Below, in pieces: positions 1,144 through 16,451 of a DNA stretch of 64,000 bases. How positions within the stretch are numbered: the stretch's first letter is position 1; each line of letters begins with the position of its first letter. A model generated the notes under the pieces. The model was not told the DNA's origin. It ran no database searches and saw only the letters and a program-made list of their open reading frames with translations. This DNA is from Bacteroidota bacterium. Its GTDB lineage: Bacteria; Bacteroidota; Bacteroidia; CAIKAF01. A program made the position numbers and the translations under genes. The stretch spans positions 25,778 through 89,777 of the forward strand of contig VGMT01000006.1 in NCBI GenBank assembly GCA_016866335.1, in the 5' to 3' direction.

Positions 1144-3684
1144 ATGCGCCAATTTCGACATTTATTGCTTGCCTTTATTGCGCCCTTTTTAACTGGGCTT
1201 TCAATTCAAGCCCAAGATTTTTCGGGACTAAGCAGCGGGAACTGGGCTGGAATTCAAAATTTACATGTGAACCCTGCCAATATTGTTGACCACCGTTATG
1301 TGGTTGATGTAAACCTGTTTTCTATGCATTTTAATGTAATGAACGATTACATAGGCATGCGAAAGGACCCTGTTTTGAACCCCAAGCTGTTCAATGAATA
1401 CAATTACAACGATTTTGACTCGCTTTATTTGGTGCGGGACTCCATAGGTAGCAAGCAATTGCTGACCTCTACGCGTTTGCAACTGCCTTCGTTTATGTTT
1501 CAAATTACACCCAAAGACGGGATTGGAATCAGCACGAATTACAGGGTAATGGCCAACATTGGAAGCATTAGCGAGGAGATTGCGCAGCTTGTGAACGCCT
1601 CGGTTCGAAATTCTTTTTCGGCAAGCAGTTTGGGTTCTTTTTCAGAGAATATTGCCGCCTACTTGTTTCAAGGGGCATTGAACAACAACTATACCTTGGA
1701 TTTTGACAATTCATTTGCGAACACCTTGGCGGCAAGCTGGATGGATGTTGGCTTGCATTATGGAAGGGTGGCCATTGACCAGAAACAACATTTTTTGAAG
1801 GCCGGCGTTGCTTTGAAGTTGCTTTTGGGAGTGAATGCTGGATATGGATACATGAATGGGGCGTATGCCCAGTACGATCCTAATTTATCAGAGATTACCT
1901 CTTTGCGCGGCGATTTGATGTATGGGGAAAGCAACAATGCCATAAGTTCGGGAGGCTATAATCCCTTTAATTTTACAGGCTTTGGCATGGGTTTGGATTT
2001 TGGTGTGGTATATGAGTGGAGGCCCAAATACGCGAAGTATCAATACAATATGGATGGGAAAACAGGTTTGTGGCGTAGAGACAAAGAGAAATACACCTTG
2101 AGGGTGGGGTTGGCCCTGAACGATTTTGGTTCGATTCGATTTAACCATACCGATAGCATTCCTTCGTACCGATATTCCATCCTTAATGTAAATAATATTC
2201 CTGTCGGACTGTTCGACAATGTTACCGATTTGCAAGATGCCTTGAATCGATTGGAGGCGGCTTATCCGAATCAAGTTGTTAAAACAGCGGCCCCCGAGAC
2301 CTTTACCGTAGGCTTGCCTGCGACCTTAACCGCCACGGTTGATTGGCAAATTGTGGATCGGTTGTTTTTGAATGTAAGCCCAATAATTGCCCTGACCAAC
2401 AATGGGTATGGCAATTTCAATTTGCACAACATGAGTTCAATTACGGGCGTGATACGGTATGAAATGCCCTGGTTTGGGGCGTATTTGCCTATGAGTTGGA
2501 ATCCGCTAACCCAATTTAATGCCGGTTTGGCTTTGCGCATGGGGCCATTGTTTGTTGGCAGTGGTTCTGTATTGTCTTGGTTGTTTAAAGACTACAGCAC
2601 GGGAGTGGATTTTTATTTTGGTGTGAAAGTGCCGATACCGCATTTGGCTCCGCGCGATCGAGACAACGACCAGGTGTCGGACCGGAAGGATAATTGTCCT
2701 GACAAGCCAGGAGTTTGGGAGTTTAAAGGTTGTCCGGACAGCGATGGAGATGGAATTCCCGATGCACTGGATGAGTGTCCGTTTGAGGCAGGTGTGCGCG
2801 CCTTCAAGGGCTGTCCAGATACAGATGGTGATGGGGTGAAGGATGCCGACGACGAGTGTCCGAATGAAGCGGGTCCTTCTGCCTTGAAAGGATGTCCAGA
2901 TAAAGATGGAGATGGAGTAGCCGACCGCAACGATGTTTGTCCGGACCAGAAAGGTCTTGCCCAATTCAAAGGTTGTCCAGATACCGATAACGACAGCATC
3001 CAAGATTCAGAAGATGCATGTCCGGAGTTGGCTGGGCCCCGCGAAAACCAGGGATGTCCAGACAGCGATGGAGACGGGGTTTTTGATAATGTTGACAAGT
3101 GTCCTACCGTTGCTGGATTGAGGGAATTGGAGGGCTGTCCGTATGCCGATACCGATGGCGACGGAATTAAAGACAAGGACGATAAGTGTCCGAATGAGAA
3201 AGGTCCGGCAGAGAACAACGGTTGTCCGTATTCCGATACCGACGGCGACGGCATTATTGACATTGAAGACAAATGCCCTAACACGCCTGGCATTAAGGAA
3301 AAAGACGGTTGTCCTCCGATTTCAAAAGAAGATCAGGATATTTTGAATAAGGCGTTTGATAACTTGGAATTTGAAACAGGAAAAGCGGTCATACGGAGTA
3401 GTTCCAATGCATCGCTGGATGAATTGGCCGATTTATTCAAAGCCAAGCCGAAGTTTATGCTGTTGATTGAAGGGCATACCGACAATGTGGGAAGCCGCAG
3501 CAGCAACTTGACCTTGTCGAAAAACAGGTCGGCAGCAGTGAAGCTTTACATGCAGAAAAAGGGAATTGAGGGAAGCCGATTGATCGTGATGTTCTATGGG
3601 CCCGACAAGCCAATTGCCGACAACGCAACCGAAGAGGGGCGTCAGAAGAACCGTAGGGTAGAGATGACGGTGATTTTTGAGTAA
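1144..3684 (+). CDS. OmpA-family outer-membrane protein. It has an N-terminal ~500-aa domain of unknown type, about eight thrombospondin type-3-like calcium-binding repeats, and a C-terminal OmpA_C domain.
   Basis: It starts with a signal peptide 'MRQFRHLLLAFIAPFLTGLSIQAQ'. Repeats of the form 'CPDSDGDGIPDALDECP' are TSP3-like. The C-terminus 'IEGHTDNVGS...NRRVEM' is OmpA_C-like. Confidence 0.75.
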   Translation: MRQFRHLLLAFIAPFLTGLSIQAQDFSGLSSGNWAGIQNLHVNPANIVDHRYVVDVNLFSMHFNVMNDYIGMRKDPVLNPKLFNEYNYNDFDSLYLVRDSIGSKQLLTSTRLQLPSFMFQITPKDGIGISTNYRVMANIGSISEEIAQLVNASVRNSFSASSLGSFSENIAAYLFQGALNNNYTLDFDNSFANTLAASWMDVGLHYGRVAIDQKQHFLKAGVALKLLLGVNAGYGYMNGAYAQYDPNLSEITSLRGDLMYGESNNAISSGGYNPFNFTGFGMGLDFGVVYEWRPKYAKYQYNMDGKTGLWRRDKEKYTLRVGLALNDFGSIRFNHTDSIPSYRYSILNVNNIPVGLFDNVTDLQDALNRLEAAYPNQVVKTAAPETFTVGLPATLTATVDWQIVDRLFLNVSPIIALTNNGYGNFNLHNMSSITGVIRYEMPWFGAYLPMSWNPLTQFNAGLALRMGPLFVGSGSVLSWLFKDYSTGVDFYFGVKVPIPHLAPRDRDNDQVSDRKDNCPDKPGVWEFKGCPDSDGDGIPDALDECPFEAGVRAFKGCPDTDGDGVKDADDECPNEAGPSALKGCPDKDGDGVADRNDVCPDQKGLAQFKGCPDTDNDSIQDSEDACPELAGPRENQGCPDSDGDGVFDNVDKCPTVAGLRELEGCPYADTDGDGIKDKDDKCPNEKGPAENNGCPYSDTDGDGIIDIEDKCPNTPGIKEKDGCPPISKEDQDILNKAFDNLEFETGKAVIRSSSNASLDELADLFKAKPKFMLLIEGHTDNVGSRSSNLTLSKNRSAAVKLYMQKKGIEGSRLIVMFYGPDKPIADNATEEGRQKNRRVEMTVIFE

Positions 3685-3802: not shown

Positions 3803-4167
3803 GGGGCTGACCGGTATTGACAGCGAGAGTTGTTCAATTGTAAGCGTGCCGAGGGTTGCTGCCTTACCTCGTTAATCTAAAGCTTCGACACGTTAAGTGC
3901 CGACAACAACAACTACGCTCTAGCTGCCTAATCGAAGCGATTAGCAGTAAGCTGTTCCGCCGGAGGGCCTCCCGATTTCTCTGGACTGGGACATCATTCC
4001 ATCGGGATGCTGTCGGTTTCGTTCCGCGACCGGCCTAAGATAAGGAACTAAGGGAAGGCTTTGGGGGTCACCGACCGTAGCTTTTCACGAAAAATCTTTG
4101 GTGTCTGCGCACGGAGAAGGCTTTTGAATGCCTTGTTTGGACGCGGGTTCGACTCCCGCCAGCTCCA
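3803..4167 (+). ncRNA. ssrA: tmRNA (transfer-messenger RNA, ssrA)
   Basis: The 5' end 'GGGGCTGA' pairs with the 3' end 'CAGCTCC' plus discriminator A, and the stem has a G3:U70 wobble, which is the alanine identity element. The T-arm is 'GCGGGTTCGACTCCCGC'. An internal tag ORF '...gcc gac aac aac aac tac gct cta gct gcc taa' encodes (A)DNNNYALAA*. The 3' CCA is not encoded. Confidence 0.9.
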
Positions 4168-4175
4168 CACATATC

Positions 4176-4280: not shown

Positions 4281-4540
4281 GGGAATTCAAGCCGCTGTTA
4301 GTATAGCCTCGAATGCACGAATGTTGTTTTTTTGGGGAGAAATTGGCGTAAGGATCTTAAGCCGCGTGTAGCTTAGCCAGGAATGCACGAATGGTTTGTT
4401 TTTGGGGAGAGATTGACGTAAGGACCTTAAGCCGAGTGTAGCTTAGCCACGAATGCACGAATGTTGTGTTTTTGGGGAGAGATTGGCGTAAGGATCTTAA
4501 GCCGCGTGTAGCTTAGCCAGGAATGCGGGAATATTTTTTA
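4281..4540. repeat. Tandem array of a ~70-bp unit, about 3.7 copies, immediately downstream of ssrA
   Basis: Units begin at roughly 4311, 4381 and 4451, with partial copies at both ends. One unit reads 'gaatgcacgaatgttgtttttttggggagaaattggcgtaaggatcttaagccgcgtgtagcttagccag'. Copies are more than 90% identical. Confidence 0.85.
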
Positions 4541-4738
4541 AGACTACCCTATCGCAAGGTATATGCCATCGGTTAGGGGTTTTGAGGAAGCATCAGGCAT
4601 TCCTGCCCTGCCTTTTTTAATTCAAACGATGGGTGTTTTTGTGTTAATTCGGATTTTGACGCTCGGGGCGAAGATCAATTTAACTCTTTGTGAAATGGGA
4701 TAAAACCAATCATTAGCTTGCCGGTTCGTGTTCGGTCC

Positions 4739-4785
4739 AAAAAAAACAAACCTCTCCGTGGAAAAATGGAGAGGTTTGTTTTTTT
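4739..4785. terminator. Bidirectional rho-independent terminator
   Basis: An A-tract is followed by an 11-bp stem (caaacctctcc / ggagaggtttg), a 10-nt loop, and T7. Confidence 0.65.
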
Positions 4786-4834
4786 AGAACCCAAAATTAA
4801 TGTAGAGAGGAAGTCGATGTATATTTTAATGCTG

Positions 4835-5080
4835 TTAGAAGGGGGCGGGCGCAATTTGGTGAGCAATGAATTGAAAACTACGCCGGGTTTTTTCCCACCA
4901 CAGCCAGCGAACCATTTCTGCCTGACCCAAGATAACCTTGTTGGTGTTGAAGAAGCGGGCCTCAATTACCCGATCTACTTCAGTCAAAACCTCGTCAACG
5001 CCTTCATTGGCTTCGGCCAATTCACGGAGTTCGGAACTTAATTCAAAATTTATTTTTTCATAAAACGAAAGTCCTTTCAT
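4835..5080 (-). CDS. Small hypothetical protein (81 aa)
   Basis: The ORF starts at an ATG ('MKGLSFYEKINFELSSELRELAEA...') and is rich in charged helices. It ends just upstream of the 4739..4785 terminator. The overlapping plus-strand ORF runs through that terminator and was rejected. Confidence 0.4.
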   Translation of the reverse strand: MKGLSFYEKINFELSSELRELAEANEGVDEVLTEVDRVIEARFFNTNKVILGQAEMVRWLWWEKTRRSFQFIAHQIAPAPF

Positions 5081-5114: not shown

Positions 5115-5174
5115 GGCAGACCCGCATTCTACTCATCCCAACGTTTCCCCAATTAAGCGGGTCTGCCTTTTTTT
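5115..5174 (+). terminator. GC-rich hairpin with a T-tract on the plus-strand side. It lies 21 nt downstream of the small-peptide gene array.
   Basis: Stems ggcagacccgc (5115-5125) and gcgggtctgcc (5157-5167) flank a 31-nt loop, and T7 follows at 5168-5174. Confidence 0.45.
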
Positions 5175-5195
5175 GTGCTTCCAACGTTTAAACTT

Positions 5196-5357
5196 TTAAT
5201 GTGCGATTTCGTCCACGATGATGTCGGAACCGGCGCAGTGCGCGATTTCATCGACGATGATGTCGTTGCTTTTGCGGTGCGCGATTTCGTCCACGATGAT
5301 GTCGTAAGATGTGCTGCTGCTGAAAAGCATAGAAACAAGAAGGATTAACGTTGACAT
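5196..5357 (-). CDS. Small acidic repeat peptide, copy 1 (53 aa): MSTLILLVSMLFSSSTSYDIIVDEIAHRKSNDIIVDEIAHCAGSDIIVDEIAH
   Basis: ATG to TAA, 162 nt. The ORF contains an internal 39-nt (13-codon) repeat present three times. Differences among the three gene copies are mostly synonymous in this frame. Confidence 0.6.
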   Translation of the reverse strand: MSTLILLVSMLFSSSTSYDIIVDEIAHRKSNDIIVDEIAHCAGSDIIVDEIAH

Positions 5358-5390
5358 GGTATTTTGATTTTAGGGGTTAGGCAATGGGAA

Positions 5391-5552
5391 TTAATGAGCG
5401 ATCTCGTCCACGATGATGTCGGAACCGGCGTAGTGCGCGATTTCATCAACAATGATGTCGTTGCTTGTACGGTGAGCGATTTCGTCCACGATGATGTCGT
5501 AAGATGTGCTGCCGCTAAAAAGCATAGAAATAAGAAGGATTAGCGTTGACAT
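5391..5552 (-). CDS. Small acidic repeat peptide, copy 2 (53 aa): MSTLILLISMLFSGSTSYDIIVDEIAHRTSNDIIVDEIAHYAGSDIIVDEIAH
   Basis: Same frame and length as copy 1, with a 195-bp periodicity between copies. Confidence 0.6.
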   Translation of the reverse strand: MSTLILLISMLFSGSTSYDIIVDEIAHRTSNDIIVDEIAHYAGSDIIVDEIAH

Positions 5553-5585
5553 GGTATTTTGTATTTAGGGGTTAGACAATGGGAA

Positions 5586-5747
5586 TTAATGAGCGATTTC
5601 GTCCACGATGATATCGGAACCGGCGTAGTGCGCGATTTCATCAACAATGATGTCGTTGCTTGTACGGTGAGCGATTTCGTCCACGATGATGTCGTAAGAT
5701 GTGCTGCTGCTAAAAAGCATAGAAACAAGAAGGATTAGCGTGCTCAT
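5586..5747 (-). CDS. Small acidic repeat peptide, copy 3 (53 aa): MSTLILLVSMLFSSSTSYDIIVDEIAHRTSNDIIVDEIAHYAGSDIIVDEIAH
   Basis: Same frame and length as copy 1. Compared with copy 1 it has 9 synonymous codon changes and 2 nonsynonymous ones. One of the synonymous changes is a TCA-to-AGC serine switch. Confidence 0.6.
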   Translation of the reverse strand: MSTLILLVSMLFSSSTSYDIIVDEIAHRTSNDIIVDEIAHYAGSDIIVDEIAH

Positions 5748-6019
5748 GGTAAAAGAATTTTTGTTGGGGTATTAAAAAACATTTTAAGTGGAAAAGGTGT
5801 TGTCGGAATACAGAAGCAAAAAGAGCATTTAAAAGGGTGTTCAATAATATAAATGCCGTATATTGTGCTGTTTGACAAAACGATAAAGAACGCGTCGAAT
5901 GGGGCTGGCCTCAATTCTGAATCAAAGGTGGGGTCTTTGATGTCTGAAAAAAACACCAAAAGTTTAAAATTTGGACAATACTAAGGTTTTTTGTAGGTTT
6001 GCTTCAGAAACGTTGTAAA

Positions 6020-7576
6020 ATGAGAAAAAACACTACACTTAGCTTAAGGCAGATTGTTAAGGCAATGGGCCCAGCTGAAATTGAAGCGACGGCCGCTTTT
6101 ATTGCCGGTTTCAATAGAAAATACGGCGAGTATGAGCCAAAAACGCTTAAATTGTTCAGCTATATTTCCGACAATACGAAGGTTGAAAATTCATCCGACG
6201 ATGAGGTGAAAAACCACCTTTTTCCACAAATGGACGATGGAACCTTTGCGAAATTGGTATCTAGGTTAAAGGAAAAGGTGTTTGAATCGCTGCAATTGGA
6301 GGTTAATCTGGGTCGAGGGAATTCCTATTCGCCCAGTTGGTTGGCAAGGCAAAGGGCTAGGAAGGCCTTGATTTCAGCCGAAATTTTGTCTTTAAAGGGA
6401 CTGAAGGGAGAATCAGACGAACTGCTGCGCAGGGTGTTACGTGAAAGCCAAAAATTCGAAATGTACGATCTGTCGGCTTCGGCTTGCCGCTTGCTCTTTA
6501 TTCACGTATGTACCCAACTTAGTTCAGAAAATGGAAGGGATTTGCAATTGCAGGCCGAGTCCTTCAATCGTCTTGCCTGCATAGAACGACGCGCCGATCT
6601 TCTGTTGTATAAATATGGTTTCCAGAAGGAAAATCCATACCGGGGTGAAGTCCCTTACAAGGAACTGGCCTCGGAAATAAAACACCTTAGTGCAGAATTG
6701 CAAGGTGCTCCTGCCCCTGGAATTGGTTATTTGCTTTCGCAATTGAAAATTTTGTATTGGGAGGGAGTGGGCAATTTTGAAAATCAGGCTTTTGAGGCCG
6801 AGAAACTACGCCAACTTTTGTCGTCCTATCCTGGAATTTGCAGTCCTATTCGTCAGGTAAATGCTGCCTTGCAAGCCATGACATCCGCCATGCACCTGCG
6901 TCAGTTCGACCAGGCCAAAGCCTATATTGATGAGGCAAGGTCGTTTTCGTCGCTGACTACCTACTCAGGTCGGAAGGTGGCCATGTATCAAGCAATTACC
7001 TACATACAATTGGGACATTACGGGCAGGCAAAGGAACTCCTATGTGAATTGTTGGGTCAGGCTTTGCTTAAAGATGTGGAACGCGAGCATGCTCAGTACC
7101 TTTTGGCTTATTTGGATTTTCTGTCGGGCAATCCAACCCAAACTAAATCCGCATTAAAACACATTTCCATACTTCGTCGGCAAAAGATCCAAGACTGGTC
7201 TTTAGGAATCGAAGTATTTGAGCTTCAGTTGCGGATTGATTTAGGGCAATTTGACCTGGCCGAAGGGTTGATTTCAAATTTGCAGCGCCGCATTCAAAGG
7301 CAAGGAGAGAAAGAAAAGCCAAGTCAGCGCATATTTGCCTTGGTTCGAATTCTGCATGCCCTAAGCTTAGAATCGTTCCAGTTCAAGGCTTTCTGGATGA
7401 AGAATCCCGATGCCATTGGTTTGCTCAAAGACAGTAGGCTTGGCTACCGTTGGGATCCTTTTGGTCATGAGGTGGTTGCCTTTGAAAACTGGTTGTGCTC
7501 TCATATTGGAGTTTCTGTTTCCTCGGCCTCAGAGGTTGAACTGCCCCAAGAAGATTGGGTTGAGGTTGAACTGTAA
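6020..7576 (+). CDS. Hypothetical protein (~518 aa), probably all-helical. It is divergently transcribed from the small-peptide array.
   Basis: It is a long ORF with no motif I recognise. The start was taken at 'MRKNTTLSLRQI'. Confidence 0.55.
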   Translation: MRKNTTLSLRQIVKAMGPAEIEATAAFIAGFNRKYGEYEPKTLKLFSYISDNTKVENSSDDEVKNHLFPQMDDGTFAKLVSRLKEKVFESLQLEVNLGRGNSYSPSWLARQRARKALISAEILSLKGLKGESDELLRRVLRESQKFEMYDLSASACRLLFIHVCTQLSSENGRDLQLQAESFNRLACIERRADLLLYKYGFQKENPYRGEVPYKELASEIKHLSAELQGAPAPGIGYLLSQLKILYWEGVGNFENQAFEAEKLRQLLSSYPGICSPIRQVNAALQAMTSAMHLRQFDQAKAYIDEARSFSSLTTYSGRKVAMYQAITYIQLGHYGQAKELLCELLGQALLKDVEREHAQYLLAYLDFLSGNPTQTKSALKHISILRRQKIQDWSLGIEVFELQLRIDLGQFDLAEGLISNLQRRIQRQGEKEKPSQRIFALVRILHALSLESFQFKAFWMKNPDAIGLLKDSRLGYRWDPFGHEVVAFENWLCSHIGVSVSSASEVELPQEDWVEVEL

Positions 7577-12392: not shown

Positions 12393-13436
12393 TTAAGATT
12401 CCAGGTCTTCAAGCTTCAAAGGGCTGCCTCCATCTAAATCTGCCGCGAACCGCCGACCCAAAATTGCTGGGAAAAAACGAGGATGAAGCCCCAGCGCTGG
12501 CCGTATGCTGCGTACATTCTCTGCGCTGACCCTTTCGCCTTTCTTTACGTCTTTGGTAATAAATAGAGAACGGGCAAAGGGACTGTTCTTGCCTTTTAAA
12601 GGGAAGTTGGGCTCGCTTTTTCCCATCATGGCCTCGGTTCTGCGAACCTCAGTAACCAAGGTGGCAAATTCGGCAGGCTCTAGGCTAAAATGCGCATCAG
12701 GACCGCCCATGCTTCGGTCTAGTATAACATGTTTTTCAATCATAACCGCGCCCAAGGCCGTAGCTACAACCGGAGCCAAAACCCCCTCAGAATGGTCTGA
12801 CAAGCCAACAGGAACGCCAAACCTTCGACCTAAATCTTGCATTTGAAGCAGCATCATGCTTGAATCGGCCGCCGGATACGCCGAGGTGCATTTTAGCAGT
12901 ACAACCTGGGTGTTGCCCTGCCGATGGCAGGCCTCCATTGCCCATTCTATGTCTTGCAAACCAGCAATTCCCGTTGAAATTATCATGGGCTTTCCAAAGG
13001 AAGCCACATACTCAATGAGTGGAAGGTCGGTAATTTCAAAAGAGGCAATCTTGTAGGCCGGAACGTTTAATGTGTGCAACAGGTCGGCCGCACTCGGGTC
13101 AAAAGGAGTACTGAAACAATCCATGCCCAGTGAGGTGCATTCCCGAATCAGTTCTTCATGCCAATCCCAGGGCATTTCAGCTTCGCGGTATAGGTCGTGA
13201 AGGTAGGCGCCGTCCCAGGCCGTTCCGCTGCCAATTAAAAATGGGGGAGTTTTGTAGGGCAGGGTTAGGGTGTCGGCGGTATAGGTTTGGAGCTTTATGG
13301 CATCGGCTCCTGCCTTGGCCATGGCCCGGATGGTTTCAAGGGCTATTCCTATGTCTTGCCTATGGTTTGCCGACAATTCGGCAATCAGATAAACGGGCTG
13401 GTCGGGCCCCAAGGTGCGTTCTCCAATGGAAATCAT
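12393..13436 (-). CDS. pseI: Pseudaminic acid synthase / N-acetylneuraminate synthase, NeuB family
   Basis: It has a NeuB TIM-barrel ('LIAELSANH...AIKLQTY') followed by a C-terminal SAF domain. Its start overlaps the upstream gene by 4 nt. Confidence 0.8.
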   Translation of the reverse strand: MISIGERTLGPDQPVYLIAELSANHRQDIGIALETIRAMAKAGADAIKLQTYTADTLTLPYKTPPFLIGSGTAWDGAYLHDLYREAEMPWDWHEELIRECTSLGMDCFSTPFDPSAADLLHTLNVPAYKIASFEITDLPLIEYVASFGKPMIISTGIAGLQDIEWAMEACHRQGNTQVVLLKCTSAYPAADSSMMLLQMQDLGRRFGVPVGLSDHSEGVLAPVVATALGAVMIEKHVILDRSMGGPDAHFSLEPAEFATLVTEVRRTEAMMGKSEPNFPLKGKNSPFARSLFITKDVKKGERVSAENVRSIRPALGLHPRFFPAILGRRFAADLDGGSPLKLEDLES

Positions 13437-14179
13437 AAACCCGTCTTTTTTTGTTCTACGTTCTGATTTAGCTCAAATAAGGCCTGTTGACCGTCAAACC
13501 TGGGCCACATGTCTTCGTAATGCATGCAGGTATGCAATTGCAATTCCCGCATACAGCGCTCAATGACCAATGCGTCTTCGGGGGTATCTAGGGTTAACCT
13601 TATGTGGCTGTAGTTTTGGGCGTGAACCACTTGGGCTTGATGGTCGGCCTGCCTGTTCCCCGTGTACATATAAGGGGTTACGTGTTCTCTTTCTGCTGGA
13701 TGCTGGGCATTTTTTTCGGCTTCCAAAAGCAGTTCGGCCGAAAAAATTTCCATGTCTAAGCCCCGTGGAAAGGTTCGTTCAATGCTGTTTGAAACATAAG
13801 TTCGTCCCTTTGGAAGGGTAGAATAGATTTGCAATCCCTGCTGAAGCACATCGGCGCATATGAATGGACAATCGGCCGTTATGCGAATCAGATGTTCAAA
13901 GCCAAAGGTTCGAGCAGCACCGGCGAACCTGCTCAACACATCGGTTTCACTGCCTCTAAATACCTTCCAGCCTAGAGCCTGACCGCGCAATTCCAAGAGG
14001 TCGTCTTGAGCTAGGGTGGACGTTGCCAAAACCATGGGCAAATGCAGTGACGATAACCTTTGGTCAATCCACTGCAAGGGCGTTTTTCCATTAATGGGCA
14101 TATCCACTTTTCCCGGCAGCCGGGTTGAACCCATTCTTGCCTGTATTAAAATGCCAGTATGCGCCAGTAGGGCTTGCAT
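13433..14179 (-). CDS. CMP-nonulosonate cytidylyltransferase-family protein (SpsF/PseF-like)
   Basis: It has the N-terminal motif 'ILIQARMGSTRLPGKV' and is about 248 aa long. Confidence 0.65.
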   Translation of the reverse strand: MQALLAHTGILIQARMGSTRLPGKVDMPINGKTPLQWIDQRLSSLHLPMVLATSTLAQDDLLELRGQALGWKVFRGSETDVLSRFAGAARTFGFEHLIRITADCPFICADVLQQGLQIYSTLPKGRTYVSNSIERTFPRGLDMEIFSAELLLEAEKNAQHPAEREHVTPYMYTGNRQADHQAQVVHAQNYSHIRLTLDTPEDALVIERCMRELQLHTCMHYEDMWPRFDGQQALFELNQNVEQKKTGL

Positions 14180-14187
14180 GACCCAGA

Positions 14188-15399
14188 TTAGCTGTTCTCT
14201 TGGTGTTGAGTAAAAAAGCCCTTGATGGTATCAACAACGTAACGCAGTTGTTCTTCGCTTAGCGATGGGTACATCGGTATGCTTAGGCATTCTGAATAAA
14301 AAAGTTCTGCCTCGGGGCACAAACCCGGTCCATAACCGAATGAAGTTCGGTAATGCGGCATAAGGTGCAAAGGAAAATAATGCACCTGTGCAAAAATTTG
14401 GTGTTCCCGAAGGTAGTCGTAAAGCGCCTTGCGCCTTTTGGTGCGAACCACATACAAATGCCAGGCGTGATCTTCGGTTTCGGTAGGCGAATCGGCATGC
14501 GGCAACCGCAAATCGCCTATTCCCGAAAGGGCAGCATGGTAATAGCGGGCTATTTCCTTGCGGCGATTTAGGTTTTCTTCAGCCCGGCTCAATTGACTTA
14601 AACCCAAGGCCGCTTGCATGTCGGTAAGCCTGTAATTGTAACCCAATTCTTGCATTTCCATATACCACATTGGGTAGGGCTCTGTATCTGCCAAGCTGGA
14701 ATCGGCCAATGAAGCAGGGTTGGTAAAACGTTGTTGGTCGCGGGTTATGCCGTGGGTTCTCAATACCAGTAGCCGCTGGTACACCTCTGGATTTGACGTG
14801 GTAATCATGCCGCCTTCTCCACAGGCTATGTGCTTTACCGGATGAAATGAAAAAATGGCGGCATCGGCTAGGCTGCAGTCTCCACAACGAAACCCTTGGG
14901 CTCCTCTACGCTGACCGCCAGGGGCGTGGCAAGCATCTTCAAGAATCCAGGCGCCGTAGGTTTTAGCTATTTTTTTTAGGGCAACCAAATCCGCGGGCCT
15001 TCCAGCAAAATCAACCGGAATAATTCCTTTGATTTTTGAACCATATTGGTCAAACAATGCCTGAACCGCTTCGGGCCGAATGCTTCCATGCACATCGGTT
15101 TCAGCAAACAAAACCTGGGCGCCGGCATACAACGCACAGTTGCCACTGGCCGCAAAGGTTATCGGCGAGGTTACCACAAAATCGCCAGGGTTTAAACCCA
15201 ATGCAAGCACCGACAGGTGCAAAGCCGCAGTCCCATTTGCAACGGCAACCGCATAGGGAGACCCAATGTAGGCCGCAAACGCCGACTCAAACTCAGCAAT
15301 TTTTGGCCCTTGTGTCAAATAATCGGATTGCAAAGAGGCCCCTACGGCCTCCAGGTCTTCCGGGCGTATGTCTTGCCGACCATAGGGAATGGGCTTCAT
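14188..15399 (-). CDS. pseC: UDP-4-amino-4,6-dideoxy-N-acetyl-beta-L-altrosamine transaminase-like protein, DegT/DnrJ/EryC1 family
   Basis: It has a PLP aminotransferase fold ('ANGTAALHL', 'FSFHPVKHIACGEGG'). Confidence 0.75.
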   Translation of the reverse strand: MKPIPYGRQDIRPEDLEAVGASLQSDYLTQGPKIAEFESAFAAYIGSPYAVAVANGTAALHLSVLALGLNPGDFVVTSPITFAASGNCALYAGAQVLFAETDVHGSIRPEAVQALFDQYGSKIKGIIPVDFAGRPADLVALKKIAKTYGAWILEDACHAPGGQRRGAQGFRCGDCSLADAAIFSFHPVKHIACGEGGMITTSNPEVYQRLLVLRTHGITRDQQRFTNPASLADSSLADTEPYPMWYMEMQELGYNYRLTDMQAALGLSQLSRAEENLNRRKEIARYYHAALSGIGDLRLPHADSPTETEDHAWHLYVVRTKRRKALYDYLREHQIFAQVHYFPLHLMPHYRTSFGYGPGLCPEAELFYSECLSIPMYPSLSEEQLRYVVDTIKGFFTQHQENS

Positions 15400-15401
15400 A
15401 G

Positions 15402-16451
15402 TTACAATGGTTGAAATTCTGGATCCAGGTGCTGGCGTATCAACGCCCTTATGTCGTCAACACTTAACCACTGGCTGTTGTTTCCACTGCTGTACCGAAA
15501 TCCTTGTTCCACTTTTTTGGCCTTGAAATGAAGTTCAAAATCGCTCAGATTGAAGTTGGGAACCTGAGGCAATATGGCATAGTAAGGCCCCATATCGTAG
15601 GTGGTAAAAGAATCGGCCTCGGTAATCATCTCTTCGTGGATCTTTTCTCCCGGACGTATGCCCACCAATTCAGGTTCAATGGAGGGAGCTATGGCTTTCG
15701 CAACATCCAAGATTTTGTACGAGGGAATTTTGGGCACATACAATTCTCCGCCCCATTGTTGCTCTAAGGCAAACAACACCATGGAAACGCCTTCGTCCAA
15801 CGAAATATTAAACCGAGTCATGCTGGCATCGGTAATGGGCATTTTTCCCTTGTGGCGTATCTGCATGAAAAATGGAATCACCGAGCCTCGGGATCCCATT
15901 ACATTCCCATACCTTACCACCGAAAAACGAATGGGACGTTTGCCGCGGATGTTGTTGGCGGCAATAAAAAGCTTGTCTGAGCATAGTTTGGTAGCCCCAT
16001 ACAGGTTGATGGGCGCAGCGGCCTTGTCGGTCGATAGAGCCACCACCCGGCTAATTTGAGAATCAAAGGCGGCAGCAATGACGTTTTCGGCGCCCATGAT
16101 GTTCGTTTTTATGAATTCAGACGGGTTGTATTCGGCCGCAGGAACTTGTTTCAATGCCGCAGCGTGCACTACCATGTCTATTCCTTCAAAGGCTCGACTC
16201 AAACGTTCTTTGTCGCGAACATCTCCCAAAAAGAACCGCAGCTTTTGCAGCTCATCTGGGCTAAACTCTTGCTGCATTTCAAATTGCTTGAGCTCATCGC
16301 GGCTAAAAACCACAATGCGCCGCACCTCTGGATATTGGGTTAAAAGAGTATGAATAAAGCGCTTGCCAAAAGAACCCGTTCCACCGGTTACCAATATGGC
16401 TTTATCATCGAAAATGCTCATGGGAAAATGCGTGTTTTTTAAAGGCGTCAA
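15402..16451 (-). CDS. pseB: UDP-N-acetylglucosamine 4,6-dehydratase (inverting), PseB/FlaA1 family
   Basis: The N-terminus 'KAILVTGGTGSFGKRF...RIVVFSRDELKQ' is typical of the family. The start may instead be 16418. Confidence 0.8.
   Translation of the reverse strand: MTPLKNTHFPMSIFDDKAILVTGGTGSFGKRFIHTLLTQYPEVRRIVVFSRDELKQFEMQQEFSPDELQKLRFFLGDVRDKERLSRAFEGIDMVVHAAALKQVPAAEYNPSEFIKTNIMGAENVIAAAFDSQISRVVALSTDKAAAPINLYGATKLCSDKLFIAANNIRGKRPIRFSVVRYGNVMGSRGSVIPFFMQIRHKGKMPITDASMTRFNISLDEGVSMVLFALEQQWGGELYVPKIPSYKILDVAKAIAPSIEPELVGIRPGEKIHEEMITEADSFTTYDMGPYYAILPQVPNFNLSDFELHFKAKKVEQGFRYSSGNNSQWLSVDDIRALIRQHLDPEFQPL

Follow-up and report, generated by a model that had tools for sequence, protein, structure and literature searches.

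Tandem small-peptide genes of a Bacteroidota contig and their conservation in a cassette with a divergently encoded TPR protein

The window studied here is a 64,000-nt stretch of a Bacteroidota bacterium genome (assembly GCA_016866335.1, contig VGMT01000006.1, positions 25,778 to 89,777 of the forward strand), which contains three tandem genes of 53-amino-acid (aa) peptides on its minus strand (positions 5196–5747). The comparison with related loci indicates that this array is part of a conserved, previously undescribed three-gene cassette of freshwater Flavobacteriales, which is composed of a divergent gene of a 518-aa tetratricopeptide repeat (TPR) protein, one to six peptide genes, an inverted repeat with a conserved 21-nt core, and a gene of a 65–81-aa helical protein. 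The peptide, TPR and small-protein families are all unannotated. The best explanation of the three peptide genes, in our opinion, is that they are the dosage-amplified peptide half of a peptide/TPR-receptor cassette. The features of the window on which the analysis is based are as follows.

5586–5747, minus strand: peptide gene copy 1 (promoter-proximal), 53 aa, MSTLILLVSMLFSSSTSYDIIVDEIAHRTSNDIIVDEIAHYAGSDIIVDEIAH (open reading frame list, selection, orthologues)
5391–5552, minus strand: peptide gene copy 2, 53 aa, differing from copy 1 by V8I and S14G (open reading frame list, selection)
5196–5357, minus strand: peptide gene copy 3, 53 aa, differing from copy 1 by T29K and Y41C (open reading frame list, selection)
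5115–5174, minus strand: inverted repeat, downstream of the last peptide gene and upstream of the 81-aa gene
4835–5080, minus strand: 81-aa helical protein (MKGLSFYEK...WLWWEKTRRSF...), probably the last gene of the peptide operon
4731–4794, both directions: predicted intrinsic terminator with 27-nt arms, an A-run before and a T-run after, which would end the minus-strand operon (inverted-repeat search and sequence)
5748–6019: divergent control region, 272 bp
5970–5973 and 5994–6001, plus strand: predicted promoter of the TPR gene, −33 TTTG and −7 TAGGTTTG
complement of 5923–5930, minus strand: predicted peptide-side −7-like box CACCTTTG, conserved
6020–7576, plus strand: 518-aa all-helical TPR protein, putative peptide receptor/regulator, composed of a helical domain of ~100 aa at the N-terminus and then a TPR superhelix

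The tandem reading frames encode peptides under purifying selection

The three peptide open reading frames (ORFs) start with ATG, are 162 nt long each, and are separated by spacers of 33 nt. Tandem Repeats Finder described the array as a 195-nt period in 2.8 copies with 94% matches, and a separate repeat search returned three 195-nt copies. Together with the ORF list these results confirmed the arrangement reported in a first-pass annotation of the window, in which three minus-strand ORFs of 162 nt followed each other with a 195-bp period and 33-bp spacers. Each peptide has the layout MSTLILL(V/I)SMLFS(S/G)STSY, followed by DIIVDEIAH-R(T/K)SN-DIIVDEIAH-(Y/C)AGS-DIIVDEIAH, and the triple DIIVDEIAH repeat claimed for each peptide was indeed present in all three copies. 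The comparison of copy 1 (5586) with copy 3 (5196) gave 9 synonymous codon changes and 2 amino-acid changes (T29K and Y41C), with an AGC/TCA serine switch in codon 2 among the synonymous ones, exactly as counted previously. The three DIIVDEIAH repeats inside one gene differ from each other only by synonymous changes.

The ratio of nonsynonymous to synonymous substitution (dN/dS) was calculated by the Nei–Gojobori method. In the peptide frame the two window pairs that include copy 3 gave 0.11–0.12, and copies 1 and 2, with differences in just five codons, gave 0.41. When the window peptides were compared to their relatives the values were 0.03–0.12, with the proportion of synonymous differences (pS) reaching 0.65. 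In the other two frames dN/dS was 0.8–4.3 or not computable in 23 of 24 tests, the sole exception being frame 1 of copies 1 and 2 (0.71); the earlier remark that the alternative frames accumulate nonsynonymous changes or stops agrees with these numbers. The peptide search returned eight metagenome clusters of 44–53 residues that were 77–94% identical. The relatives' contigs with an array contain two to four copies of 52 or 53 codons, of which every ORF is intact, even though the copies lie in mutually different frames because the spacer lengths vary. The 52- and 53-aa forms are set apart by a 3-nt in-frame indel.

These comparative data establish that the peptide ORFs are translated genes under purifying selection, as the first-pass annotation had proposed, and they do so with more force than the window by itself could provide. 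The alternative, a non-coding tandem repeat with chance ORFs, has in its favor the repeat structure itself and nothing else, and it has already been refuted, because the low dN/dS is found in one frame only, the ORFs are preserved despite the frame shifts between copies, the two length forms are separated by an in-frame indel, the peptide design is kept in lineages without detectable DNA similarity, and no Rfam family matches the repeat. The Rfam search, using the gathering score and E ≤ 10, gave nothing for the array; weak S15-leader matches inside the peptide genes (E of 0.6–2) were considered and dismissed. The peptides had no match in Pfam, NCBIfam, PADLOC or PHROGs, in line with the previous statement that the family was not a recognized one. 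A pattern describing the peptide, which consists of a hydrophobic N-terminus free of Lys and Arg and a hydrophobic-triplet/acidic motif in the last 14 residues, matched none of the 447 other small ORFs of the window, and it fitted ORFs adjoining the TPR gene in six of the eight lineages for which DNA was available. The pattern was written after the fact, so this test is circular by design, yet it shows that the pattern is specific.

The array is conserved together with a TPR gene and a small-protein gene

In each clade A relative the array lies between a divergent gene of a ~517-aa protein, orthologous to the gene at 6020–7576, and a same-strand ORF of ~81 aa, orthologous to that at 4835–5080. 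The search with the 518-aa protein extended the comparison to relatives at 33% identity (P0017–P0019), and genome and metagenome scans added those at 37–38% and at 27%. The lineages (L numbers denote loci and P numbers proteins) are listed below, with the identity of the TPR protein to that of the window.

Clade A: TPR protein 59–100% identical; 2–4 peptide genes with three IIVDEI[AG]H repeats each
Clade B (L021–L023): TPR protein 37–38% identical; 3–6 genes of 55 codons, where the array is within the contig, ending in IIVDELQH (e.g., MDSFWILVALMLNLLIAARPTMSPDEYRALEQRSNDAIRSGEEAQVQIIVDELQH); small protein of 68 aa
Clade C (L011–L017, L024, L025): TPR protein 33% identical; 3 genes of 47–48 codons, ending in I[IV]VDELQN (e.g., MTAIFTLLLALLTASTNVNTSTRTSGETAIRTQDPIAAQIVVDELQN); small protein of 79 aa
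L037 (P0025), more distant: one divergent 49-aa gene, MLAYLLQVAMMLLTSGEVRITETQRMQLEQGVQSQDEGRLQIVIEEVNF, ending in QIVIEEVNF, and 26 nt further on a 65-aa small-protein homologue
L041 (P0120): divergent 74/86-aa ORF with two internal DIVVTDDDDP repeats, ...LLDIVVTDDDDPLTDIVVTDDDDPAR
L039 (P0030), 2162–2290, minus strand: 42-aa ORF of the same design, MSFLISLLMMINCYFVDIDTTSKKPLNTDDNAPILTDEGGAG, absent from the gene calls of the record
L040 (P0060), 2315–2383, minus strand: weak 22-aa candidate MQLIIDLLRIAGIIVTNEDGMN only, absent from the gene calls of the record
L033/L034 (P0168), clade D: TPR protein 27% identical (5001–6509 in L033); 19-aa ORF MHSLFLFMYTLIVPDEVSS, unconvincing
P0022: the divergent neighbor is a large uncharacterized gene, called as 933 aa and cut by the contig end

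Co-conservation of the array with the gene at 6020–7576, which had been suggested as a check, was thus observed across lineages, down to ~30% identity of the TPR protein. The genes around the cassette differ between clades. In clade B they are Mla genes and a purF-like gene, and in clade C they are DUF6580/cobS on one side and a purF-like or polyprenyl synthase gene on the other. Among the flanks examined across the clades only housekeeping genes were found (for asparaginyl-tRNA synthetase and OmpA, purF-like, cobS and Mla), and only the TPR gene and the 65–81-aa gene stay with the array. The GATase gene beside the TPR gene in clades B and C was considered as a lasso-cyclase-like AsnB, but it was rejected because it is a PurF-type amidophosphoribosyltransferase, which is a housekeeping enzyme. 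Five of the eight genome records are titled as metagenome-assembled genomes (MAGs) of Flavobacteriales, Bacteroidetes or Bacteroidia; the remaining three are titled Competibacteraceae, yet their module is likewise that of clade B or C. The contigs originate from freshwater lakes. Viral contigs contained neither a relative of the TPR protein nor the hairpin core, and hence nothing suggests a phage origin.

The uncalled candidate ORFs of L039 and L040, which are 42 and 22 codons long, indicate that small ORFs of this class are probably under-annotated. In L033/L034 the TPR gene is located between two giant genes of type IX secretion system cargo proteins (Ig_7 and Por_Secre_tail; 1560 and >1811 aa), one of which is its divergent neighbor, and this setting suggests that the TPR family may regulate or serve other secreted products as well.

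The conserved part of the peptide is its C-terminal octapeptide

Three properties of the peptide are kept across the clades. These are an uncharged hydrophobic N-terminus of 15–18 residues, an acidic overall charge (isoelectric point 4.1–5.0), and a C-terminal octapeptide I-[IV]-V-D-E-[IL]-x-[HN], which always abuts the stop codon. Small residues (S-T-S/Y) precede the first motif after the hydrophobic stretch. The conservation is centered on the last 8 residues, with the linkers and the N-termini drifting; the clade A linkers, for example, are RTSN, RKSN, RYGK, RTGN, RSGK, YAGS, YAST and CAGS. Such confinement of conservation to 8 residues at the stop codon is the pattern of a recognized free C-terminus. 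The first-pass annotation had described the triple repeat, and the comparison adds to it that the functional unit appears to be the C-terminal octapeptide, which occurs once per peptide in the sister lineages. Because the sister clades carry the motif once, at the end, it was the clade of the window that triplicated it within each gene.

One operon carries 9 copies of the motif in the window, 12 in L001 and L029, 6 in L021, and 3 in clade C. The motif has been multiplied by three routes, which are the gene arrays, the internal triplication in clade A, and the internal duplication in L041, and this points to selection for the dose of a ligand. In L021 (4738–5669, on a 1.57-Mb Flavobacteriales MAG contig) five copies with a 191-bp period encode identical peptides and are accompanied by one divergent first copy, which suggests recent amplification or gene conversion; in L001, by contrast, the first and later copies differ at pS = 0.61.

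The divergently encoded protein has a TPR fold

The first-pass annotation had listed the 518-aa neighbor as a hypothetical protein, and its TPR nature emerged from the modeling and from its relatives. AlphaFold2 with a 9-sequence alignment gave an all-helical model with a mean predicted local distance difference test score (pLDDT) of 79.8 and a predicted template modeling score (pTM) of 0.70, in which the N-terminal ~100 residues were less confident. This part was modeled as five to six helices with pLDDT of 47–82, and it contains the conserved basic residues K41, R82 and K86. With no hydrophobic N-terminus, the protein is presumably cytoplasmic. The window protein itself gave nothing meaningful in Pfam, NCBIfam, PADLOC and PHROGs; the Pfam matches of its relatives (TPR_14, TPR_2, TPR_12 and TPR_MalT) were weak and generic for TPRs, and two of 21 family members had a weak match to Trans_reg_C (E = 0.025). 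A profile search of PDB sequences returned only consensus TPR proteins, the TPR sensor PH0952, and LGN, and a Foldseek search of PDB with the model returned only generic TPR proteins.

When structures were ranked by fold, the first places were taken by Rap phi105 with peptide (18.9), NprR-NprX (18.8) and Rap pLS20 (18.7), which were followed by LGN (rank 4, 18.1), MalT domain III (rank 5, 17.7) and RapH (rank 6, 16.8). RapI (15.5) and phAimR (15.5) were placed at ranks 11 and 12, AimR of SPbeta at rank 17 (14.2), and PlcR at rank 22 (13.7). Hence, the peptide-pheromone receptors Rap and NprR were narrowly ahead of generic TPR domains, with a small margin. The model is compatible with, and closest to, the RRNPPA receptors, which is not a proof of homology.

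The TPR profile matched 1335 representatives of 50%-identity clusters at E ≤ 1e-3, 869 at E ≤ 1e-10, and 279 at E ≤ 1e-30. The top 150 representatives are 450–549 aa long, and all but one of them match over most of their length. Ten sampled family members came from metagenomes only, and they were unnamed or called hypothetical. Residues 393–398 of the window protein are WSLGIE, and clade C keeps WNVGIR at this site. Residues N396 and R400 of P0022 (GWNIGxR) are invariant in 29 distant members, and they are Ser and Glu in the clade of the window. This change may reflect co-evolution with the ending of the peptide (IAH versus LQN).

Predicted promoters and the probable operon

The AT-rich divergent region, previously estimated at ~250 bp, was measured as 272 bp with 34.6% GC, compared to 48.6% for the window. 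To predict promoters, six clade A intergenic regions were aligned, clades A–D were compared, and the motifs were scanned for; the promoter function of the sites is suggested by their likeness to the Bacteroidetes consensus TTTG/TAnnTTTG. The predicted TPR promoter is present in all clades, with the −33 TTTG located inside a AAAATTTG(G)ACA(A/T)TAC block, followed after 20 nt by the −7 TAnnTTTG. The peptide-side box has the sub-consensus form CAnnTTTG in three clades (CACCTTTG in the window, CAACTTTG in clade C, and CAATTTTG in clade B), which would fit a dependence on an activator. These predicted promoters stand back to back within ~100 bp, and a 40-nt block in the divergent region is conserved in all clade A loci. 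The 33-nt spacers contain no promoter-like sequence, and the three peptide genes are therefore probably transcribed into one RNA. The operon probably consists of the three peptide genes, the inverted repeat and the 81-aa gene, the last of which had not been connected with the array in the first-pass annotation.

The small protein is kept in clades A, B and C, and it is present in a 65-aa form in L037. The residues R42, F44, W59, W62, E63, R66 and F69 are invariant in its alignment. No family (Pfam, NCBIfam, PADLOC, PHROGs) and no PDB relative was found for the 81-aa protein, and the AlphaFold2 model built from its sequence alone (pLDDT of 68, pTM of 0.32) was too poor for a fold search.

The sequence AAACGTTG occurs at 5139–5146 (minus strand), 5182–5189 (minus strand) and 6008–6015 (plus strand), that is three times within 900 bp, with 7 occurrences in the whole 64 kb. 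The first of these sites falls in the hairpin core, the second immediately ahead of the hairpin, and the third upstream of the TPR gene, at 5 nt from its start codon. The possibility that they form a shared operator was rejected, because the position is not conserved in clades B and C.

The inverted repeat belongs to the cassette

The strong hairpin pointed out by the first-pass annotation at 5115–5174 was reproduced, as this segment folds into an 11-bp GC-rich stem with −23.7 kcal/mol and z = −3.1. It consists of an A-run at 5168–5174 and 11-bp arms GGCAGACCCGC/GCGGGTCTGCC around a 31-nt center, with the conserved core TTGGGGAAACGTTGGGATGAG at 5132–5152. The inverted repeat is present in clades A, B and C, and it is absent from L037. 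A 20-nt stretch, TGGGGAAACGT(T/A)GGGATGAG, has just 2 mismatches between clades A and B, in which the TPR proteins are only 38% identical. The arms carry compensatory changes (...ACCCGC/GCGGGT... in clade A, ...ACCTTCC/GGAAGG... in clade B, and A-T to G-C in L018), and a palindromic DNA operator would be expected to show such changes just as well. In clade C the outer arms are the same, and the center is longer and contains GGGGAA, GGAAAC and TTGGGA boxes. In clade A2 the stem has an A·C mismatch on the peptide strand, which is a G·U pair on the plus strand.

Read along the peptide strand, the stem has A7 ahead of it and GGGAUUG behind it, so that the stem followed by a U-run that defines an intrinsic terminator is absent there; the U-run is found on the plus strand only, and read in that direction the inverted repeat looks like an intrinsic terminator. 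It had no Rfam match (gathering score, E ≤ 10), and its core is unique in the window. It is regarded as a part of the cassette that may act as an operator, an RNA stability or processing element, an attenuator or an antisense terminator. Two further ideas were examined and rejected. The hairpin loop might pair with the C-rich spacers that precede the peptide starts, but in clade A it is only partly complementary to them, and clades B and C do not conserve the complementarity. The candidate −7 boxes for the hairpin as an antisense small RNA are inconsistent between clades.

Proposed mechanism and its alternatives

We propose that a promoter in the 272-bp region would drive one minus-strand operon, which would include the three peptide genes, the inverted repeat and the 81-aa gene, and would end at the terminator at 4731–4794. 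The uncharged hydrophobic N-terminus would take the 53-aa product into or across the inner membrane, and cleavage after each His would yield three (D)IIVDEIAH peptides whose carboxyl ends are free. After re-import, the octa- or nonapeptide would be the ligand of the concave face of the divergently encoded TPR protein, which would in turn bind DNA and control the peptide operon together with the 81-aa gene, the latter as its output. The result would be an autoinducing loop similar to RRNPPA and Rgg-SHP systems, in which three genes with three repeats each would supply nine ligand copies per transcript. The identity of the C-terminal part of the peptide as the ligand is suggested by its conservation.

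A ligand/receptor pair best explains the combination of a motif at a free C-terminus, its multiplication by three independent routes, and its linkage to a presumably cytoplasmic TPR protein with short-peptide binders as its nearest structural neighbors. In our estimation, recognition of the C-terminal motif as a ligand by the TPR protein, within a signaling cassette of the RRNPPA or Rgg-SHP kind, is a serious possibility that falls a little short of an even chance. That the cassette forms a true extracellular quorum-sensing loop is rather doubtful; it would possibly be the first peptide-pheromone/cytoplasmic-TPR-receptor family in Bacteroidota, and it would have evolved independently of the Firmicutes RRNPPA systems or be only very remotely related to them. 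Such a family would comprise ~500-aa TPR proteins in at least 279 clusters, with short hydrophobic-then-acidic C-terminal motifs as their ligands.

Several observations weigh against the signaling explanation. Per-member Pfam scans and a PDB profile search of the N-terminal 100 aa of the TPR protein detected neither a helix-turn-helix (HTH) nor another DNA-binding family, and profile searches found generic TPRs only, without sequence homology to Rap, NprR, PlcR, PrgX, Rgg or AimR. The host is a diderm, and therefore a secreted peptide must cross the outer membrane twice. In all lineages the first 10 residues of the peptide are free of Lys and Arg, which is atypical for Sec export, and no gene of an exporter, a processing protease or Opp was co-conserved in the examined neighborhoods. 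The motif is nearly invariant across receptors that are just 33% identical, whereas known pheromone systems diversify their peptides. Additionally, clade D (L033) is without a convincing peptide gene, and L040 has just its weak candidate.

In a first alternative, the peptide would never be released. It could be a small membrane protein of N-out/C-in topology with three acidic tails per molecule in the cytoplasm, at which the TPR protein, and perhaps also the 81-aa protein, would be docked to the membrane. The tails would sequester or scaffold the TPR protein in the way in which EEVD or PTS1 tails are read by TPR clamps. The hydrophobic segment of 15–18 residues that starts from residue 1 without an N-terminal positive charge is consistent with such an anchor, as is the first flanking charge, which is Arg or Lys in several lineages, although in clade A the first charge after the hydrophobic stretch is Asp. 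The cytoplasmic location of the TPR protein, the lack of linked export or import genes, and the invariance of the motif across clades, which is expected of a housekeeping protein–protein contact, also agree with this explanation. On the other hand, the sequestration of a low-abundance regulator should not need 6–12 motif copies per operon or six genes, and the internal repeats would have no free C-terminus unless cleaved, yet the lineages with a single motif place it at the very end. We regard an intracellular tether or adaptor as unlikely. An abundant secreted effector, which could be a surfactant similar to phenol-soluble modulins (PSMs), a metal-binding (Asp/Glu/His) or an antimicrobial peptide, possibly modified, has a similarly low probability. 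In this case the TPR protein would be just a transcriptional regulator, and the 81-aa protein a helper or an immunity factor. Tandem small genes without a signal peptide and with a strong dosage signature recall psm operons, D1, D5 and H9 of DIIVDEIAH would share one face of a helix, and the small helical protein is encoded downstream, as are bacteriocin immunity proteins. However, neither a modifying enzyme nor a C39-ABC exporter or a peptidase is conserved with the array, and the peptides, with their strongly anionic character (isoelectric point 4.1–5.0), are unlike most membrane-active peptides. The last 8 residues alone are conserved, with no amphipathic body. The replacement of His by Asn in clade C or by Phe in L037 argues against a conserved metal site. 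Of the functions offered by the first-pass annotation, a signaling peptide or ligand is favored, while a precursor of a ribosomally synthesized and post-translationally modified peptide (RiPP) is disfavored, as no modifying enzyme is co-conserved.

The peptides could also be small membrane proteins resembling type I toxins, kept in check by an antisense RNA that would end at the 5115–5174 hairpin. This explanation agrees with the tandem small ORFs with a hydrophobic N-terminus, with the hairpin and T-run on the plus strand, where they read as an intrinsic terminator, with the clade A2 stem, which has its A·C mismatch on the peptide strand and G·U on the other strand, and with near-consensus −7 boxes in antisense orientation beside the hairpin in some clades. 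The positions of the antisense promoters are not conserved between clades, however, and the peptide genes would not be the target of such an RNA, which could be antisense at most to the 81-aa gene. The absence of the hairpin from L037, and the long acidic tail and sequence conservation, which are unlike type I toxins, make this explanation very improbable.

Comparison with known systems

The cassette resembles the RRNPPA quorum-sensing systems that Bacillota and their phages and plasmids carry (Rap-Phr, NprR-NprX, PlcR-PapR, PrgX, AimR-AimP) in that a cytoplasmic TPR-type receptor, here putative, is encoded beside a small ORF with a C-terminal, here also putative, ligand. Its layout also recalls aimR-aimP-operator-aimX, where a receptor gene, a peptide gene, a conserved site and a small downstream gene follow each other. 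Propeptides of the Phr kind may carry tandemly duplicated pheromones (PMC11343458). The differences from RRNPPA systems are the Bacteroidota host, which is a diderm, the lack of sequence homology, the larger receptor of 518 aa with an N-terminal domain that has no recognizable HTH, the propeptide without a charged n-region, the almost invariant ligand motif, the arrays of up to six peptide genes, and the third conserved gene. The literature consulted places RRNPP(A) systems only in Firmicutes (PMC10075063, PMC9765709). The distribution of RRNPPA is in Bacillota and their mobile elements, while the cassette was found mainly in records with Bacteroidota titles, with no match in viral contigs. 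Because the agreement concerns the fold and the gene arrangement, but not homology or taxonomy, the cassette was not filed as a member of RRNPPA, although it may work like an RRNPPA system.

The streptococcal Rgg/SHP systems are similar in that the gene of a short hydrophobic peptide (SHP) is divergent from the receptor gene. They differ in that SHPs are 21–23 aa long, with a Lys-rich N-terminus and a single motif, that Rgg is ~280 aa long with an XRE-type HTH, and that SHP export and processing depend on PptAB and Eep, for neither of which there was evidence in the cassette. The active pheromone of SHP3 is the C-terminal octapeptide DIIIIVGG, which is acidic and then aliphatic, and of which the intact C-terminus is needed (PMC3150281); it can be compared to DIIVDEIAH here and to the weak L040 candidate MQLIIDLLRIAGIIVTNEDGMN. 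The TPR carboxylate clamps (Hop/CHIP-EEVD-COOH, PEX5-PTS1) read a short motif at a free C-terminus, and the motif of the cassette likewise abuts the stop codon, but these clamps belong to eukaryotic chaperone and import systems, and not to gene-linked ligand/receptor pairs. Multi-core RiPP precursors of the cyanobactin PatE type share with the array the repeated short core and several tandem precursor genes, but not the other properties, as no modifying enzyme, protease or transporter is co-conserved with the array, its N-terminus is hydrophobic rather than a hydrophilic leader, and in the sister lineages there is a single, strictly C-terminal motif.

A non-exhaustive search of the literature for RRNPP(A) systems or peptide pheromones in Bacteroidota or Flavobacteriales yielded no description of such a system. 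To our knowledge, no peptide pheromones have been established in Bacteroidota, and cytoplasmic-TPR peptide signaling is regarded as a Firmicutes trait, even though Bacteroidota dominate many aquatic and gut communities. A self-contained cassette with a defined 8-residue candidate ligand is a directly testable entry point to peptide signaling in this phylum. If an extracellular loop did operate, the lineage of the window would have amplified its signal nine-fold per transcript. Even if the peptide acts only inside the cell, the array represents a small-protein family that is under strong purifying selection and absent from database annotation, and it is accompanied by an equally unannotated TPR family of several hundred sequence clusters and a conserved, putatively regulatory inverted repeat.

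Genomic surroundings of the cassette

The cassette is located ~660 bp downstream of a tmRNA gene, and the flanking genes of the window are common to the clade A loci. Further features of the window are listed here.

3803–4170, plus strand: tmRNA gene (Rfam, 145 bits), tag peptide ADNNNYALAA
4176–4210: tmRNA terminator hairpin, directly after the tmRNA gene
4282–4537: 70-nt tandem unit between the tmRNA gene and the cassette, ~3.7 copies, 83–94% identity
12393–16451, minus strand: nonulosonic-acid (sialic/pseudaminic acid-like) biosynthesis-like cluster

The possibility that the cassette is an island integrated at the tmRNA gene was rejected, since no duplicated tmRNA 3′ end was found and clades B and C are located in other genomic contexts, which makes the proximity to tmRNA look incidental. 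The 70-nt tandem unit was present in none of the related loci examined and had no Rfam match; it holds TTTTTGGGGAGAGATTGRCGTAAGG, which has a loose likeness to the hairpin core TTGGGGAAACGTTGGGATGAG. The cluster at 12393–16451, which is unrelated to the array, contains genes of NeuB, a CMP-sugar cytidylyltransferase, a DegT aminotransferase and a Polysacc_synt_2 dehydratase.

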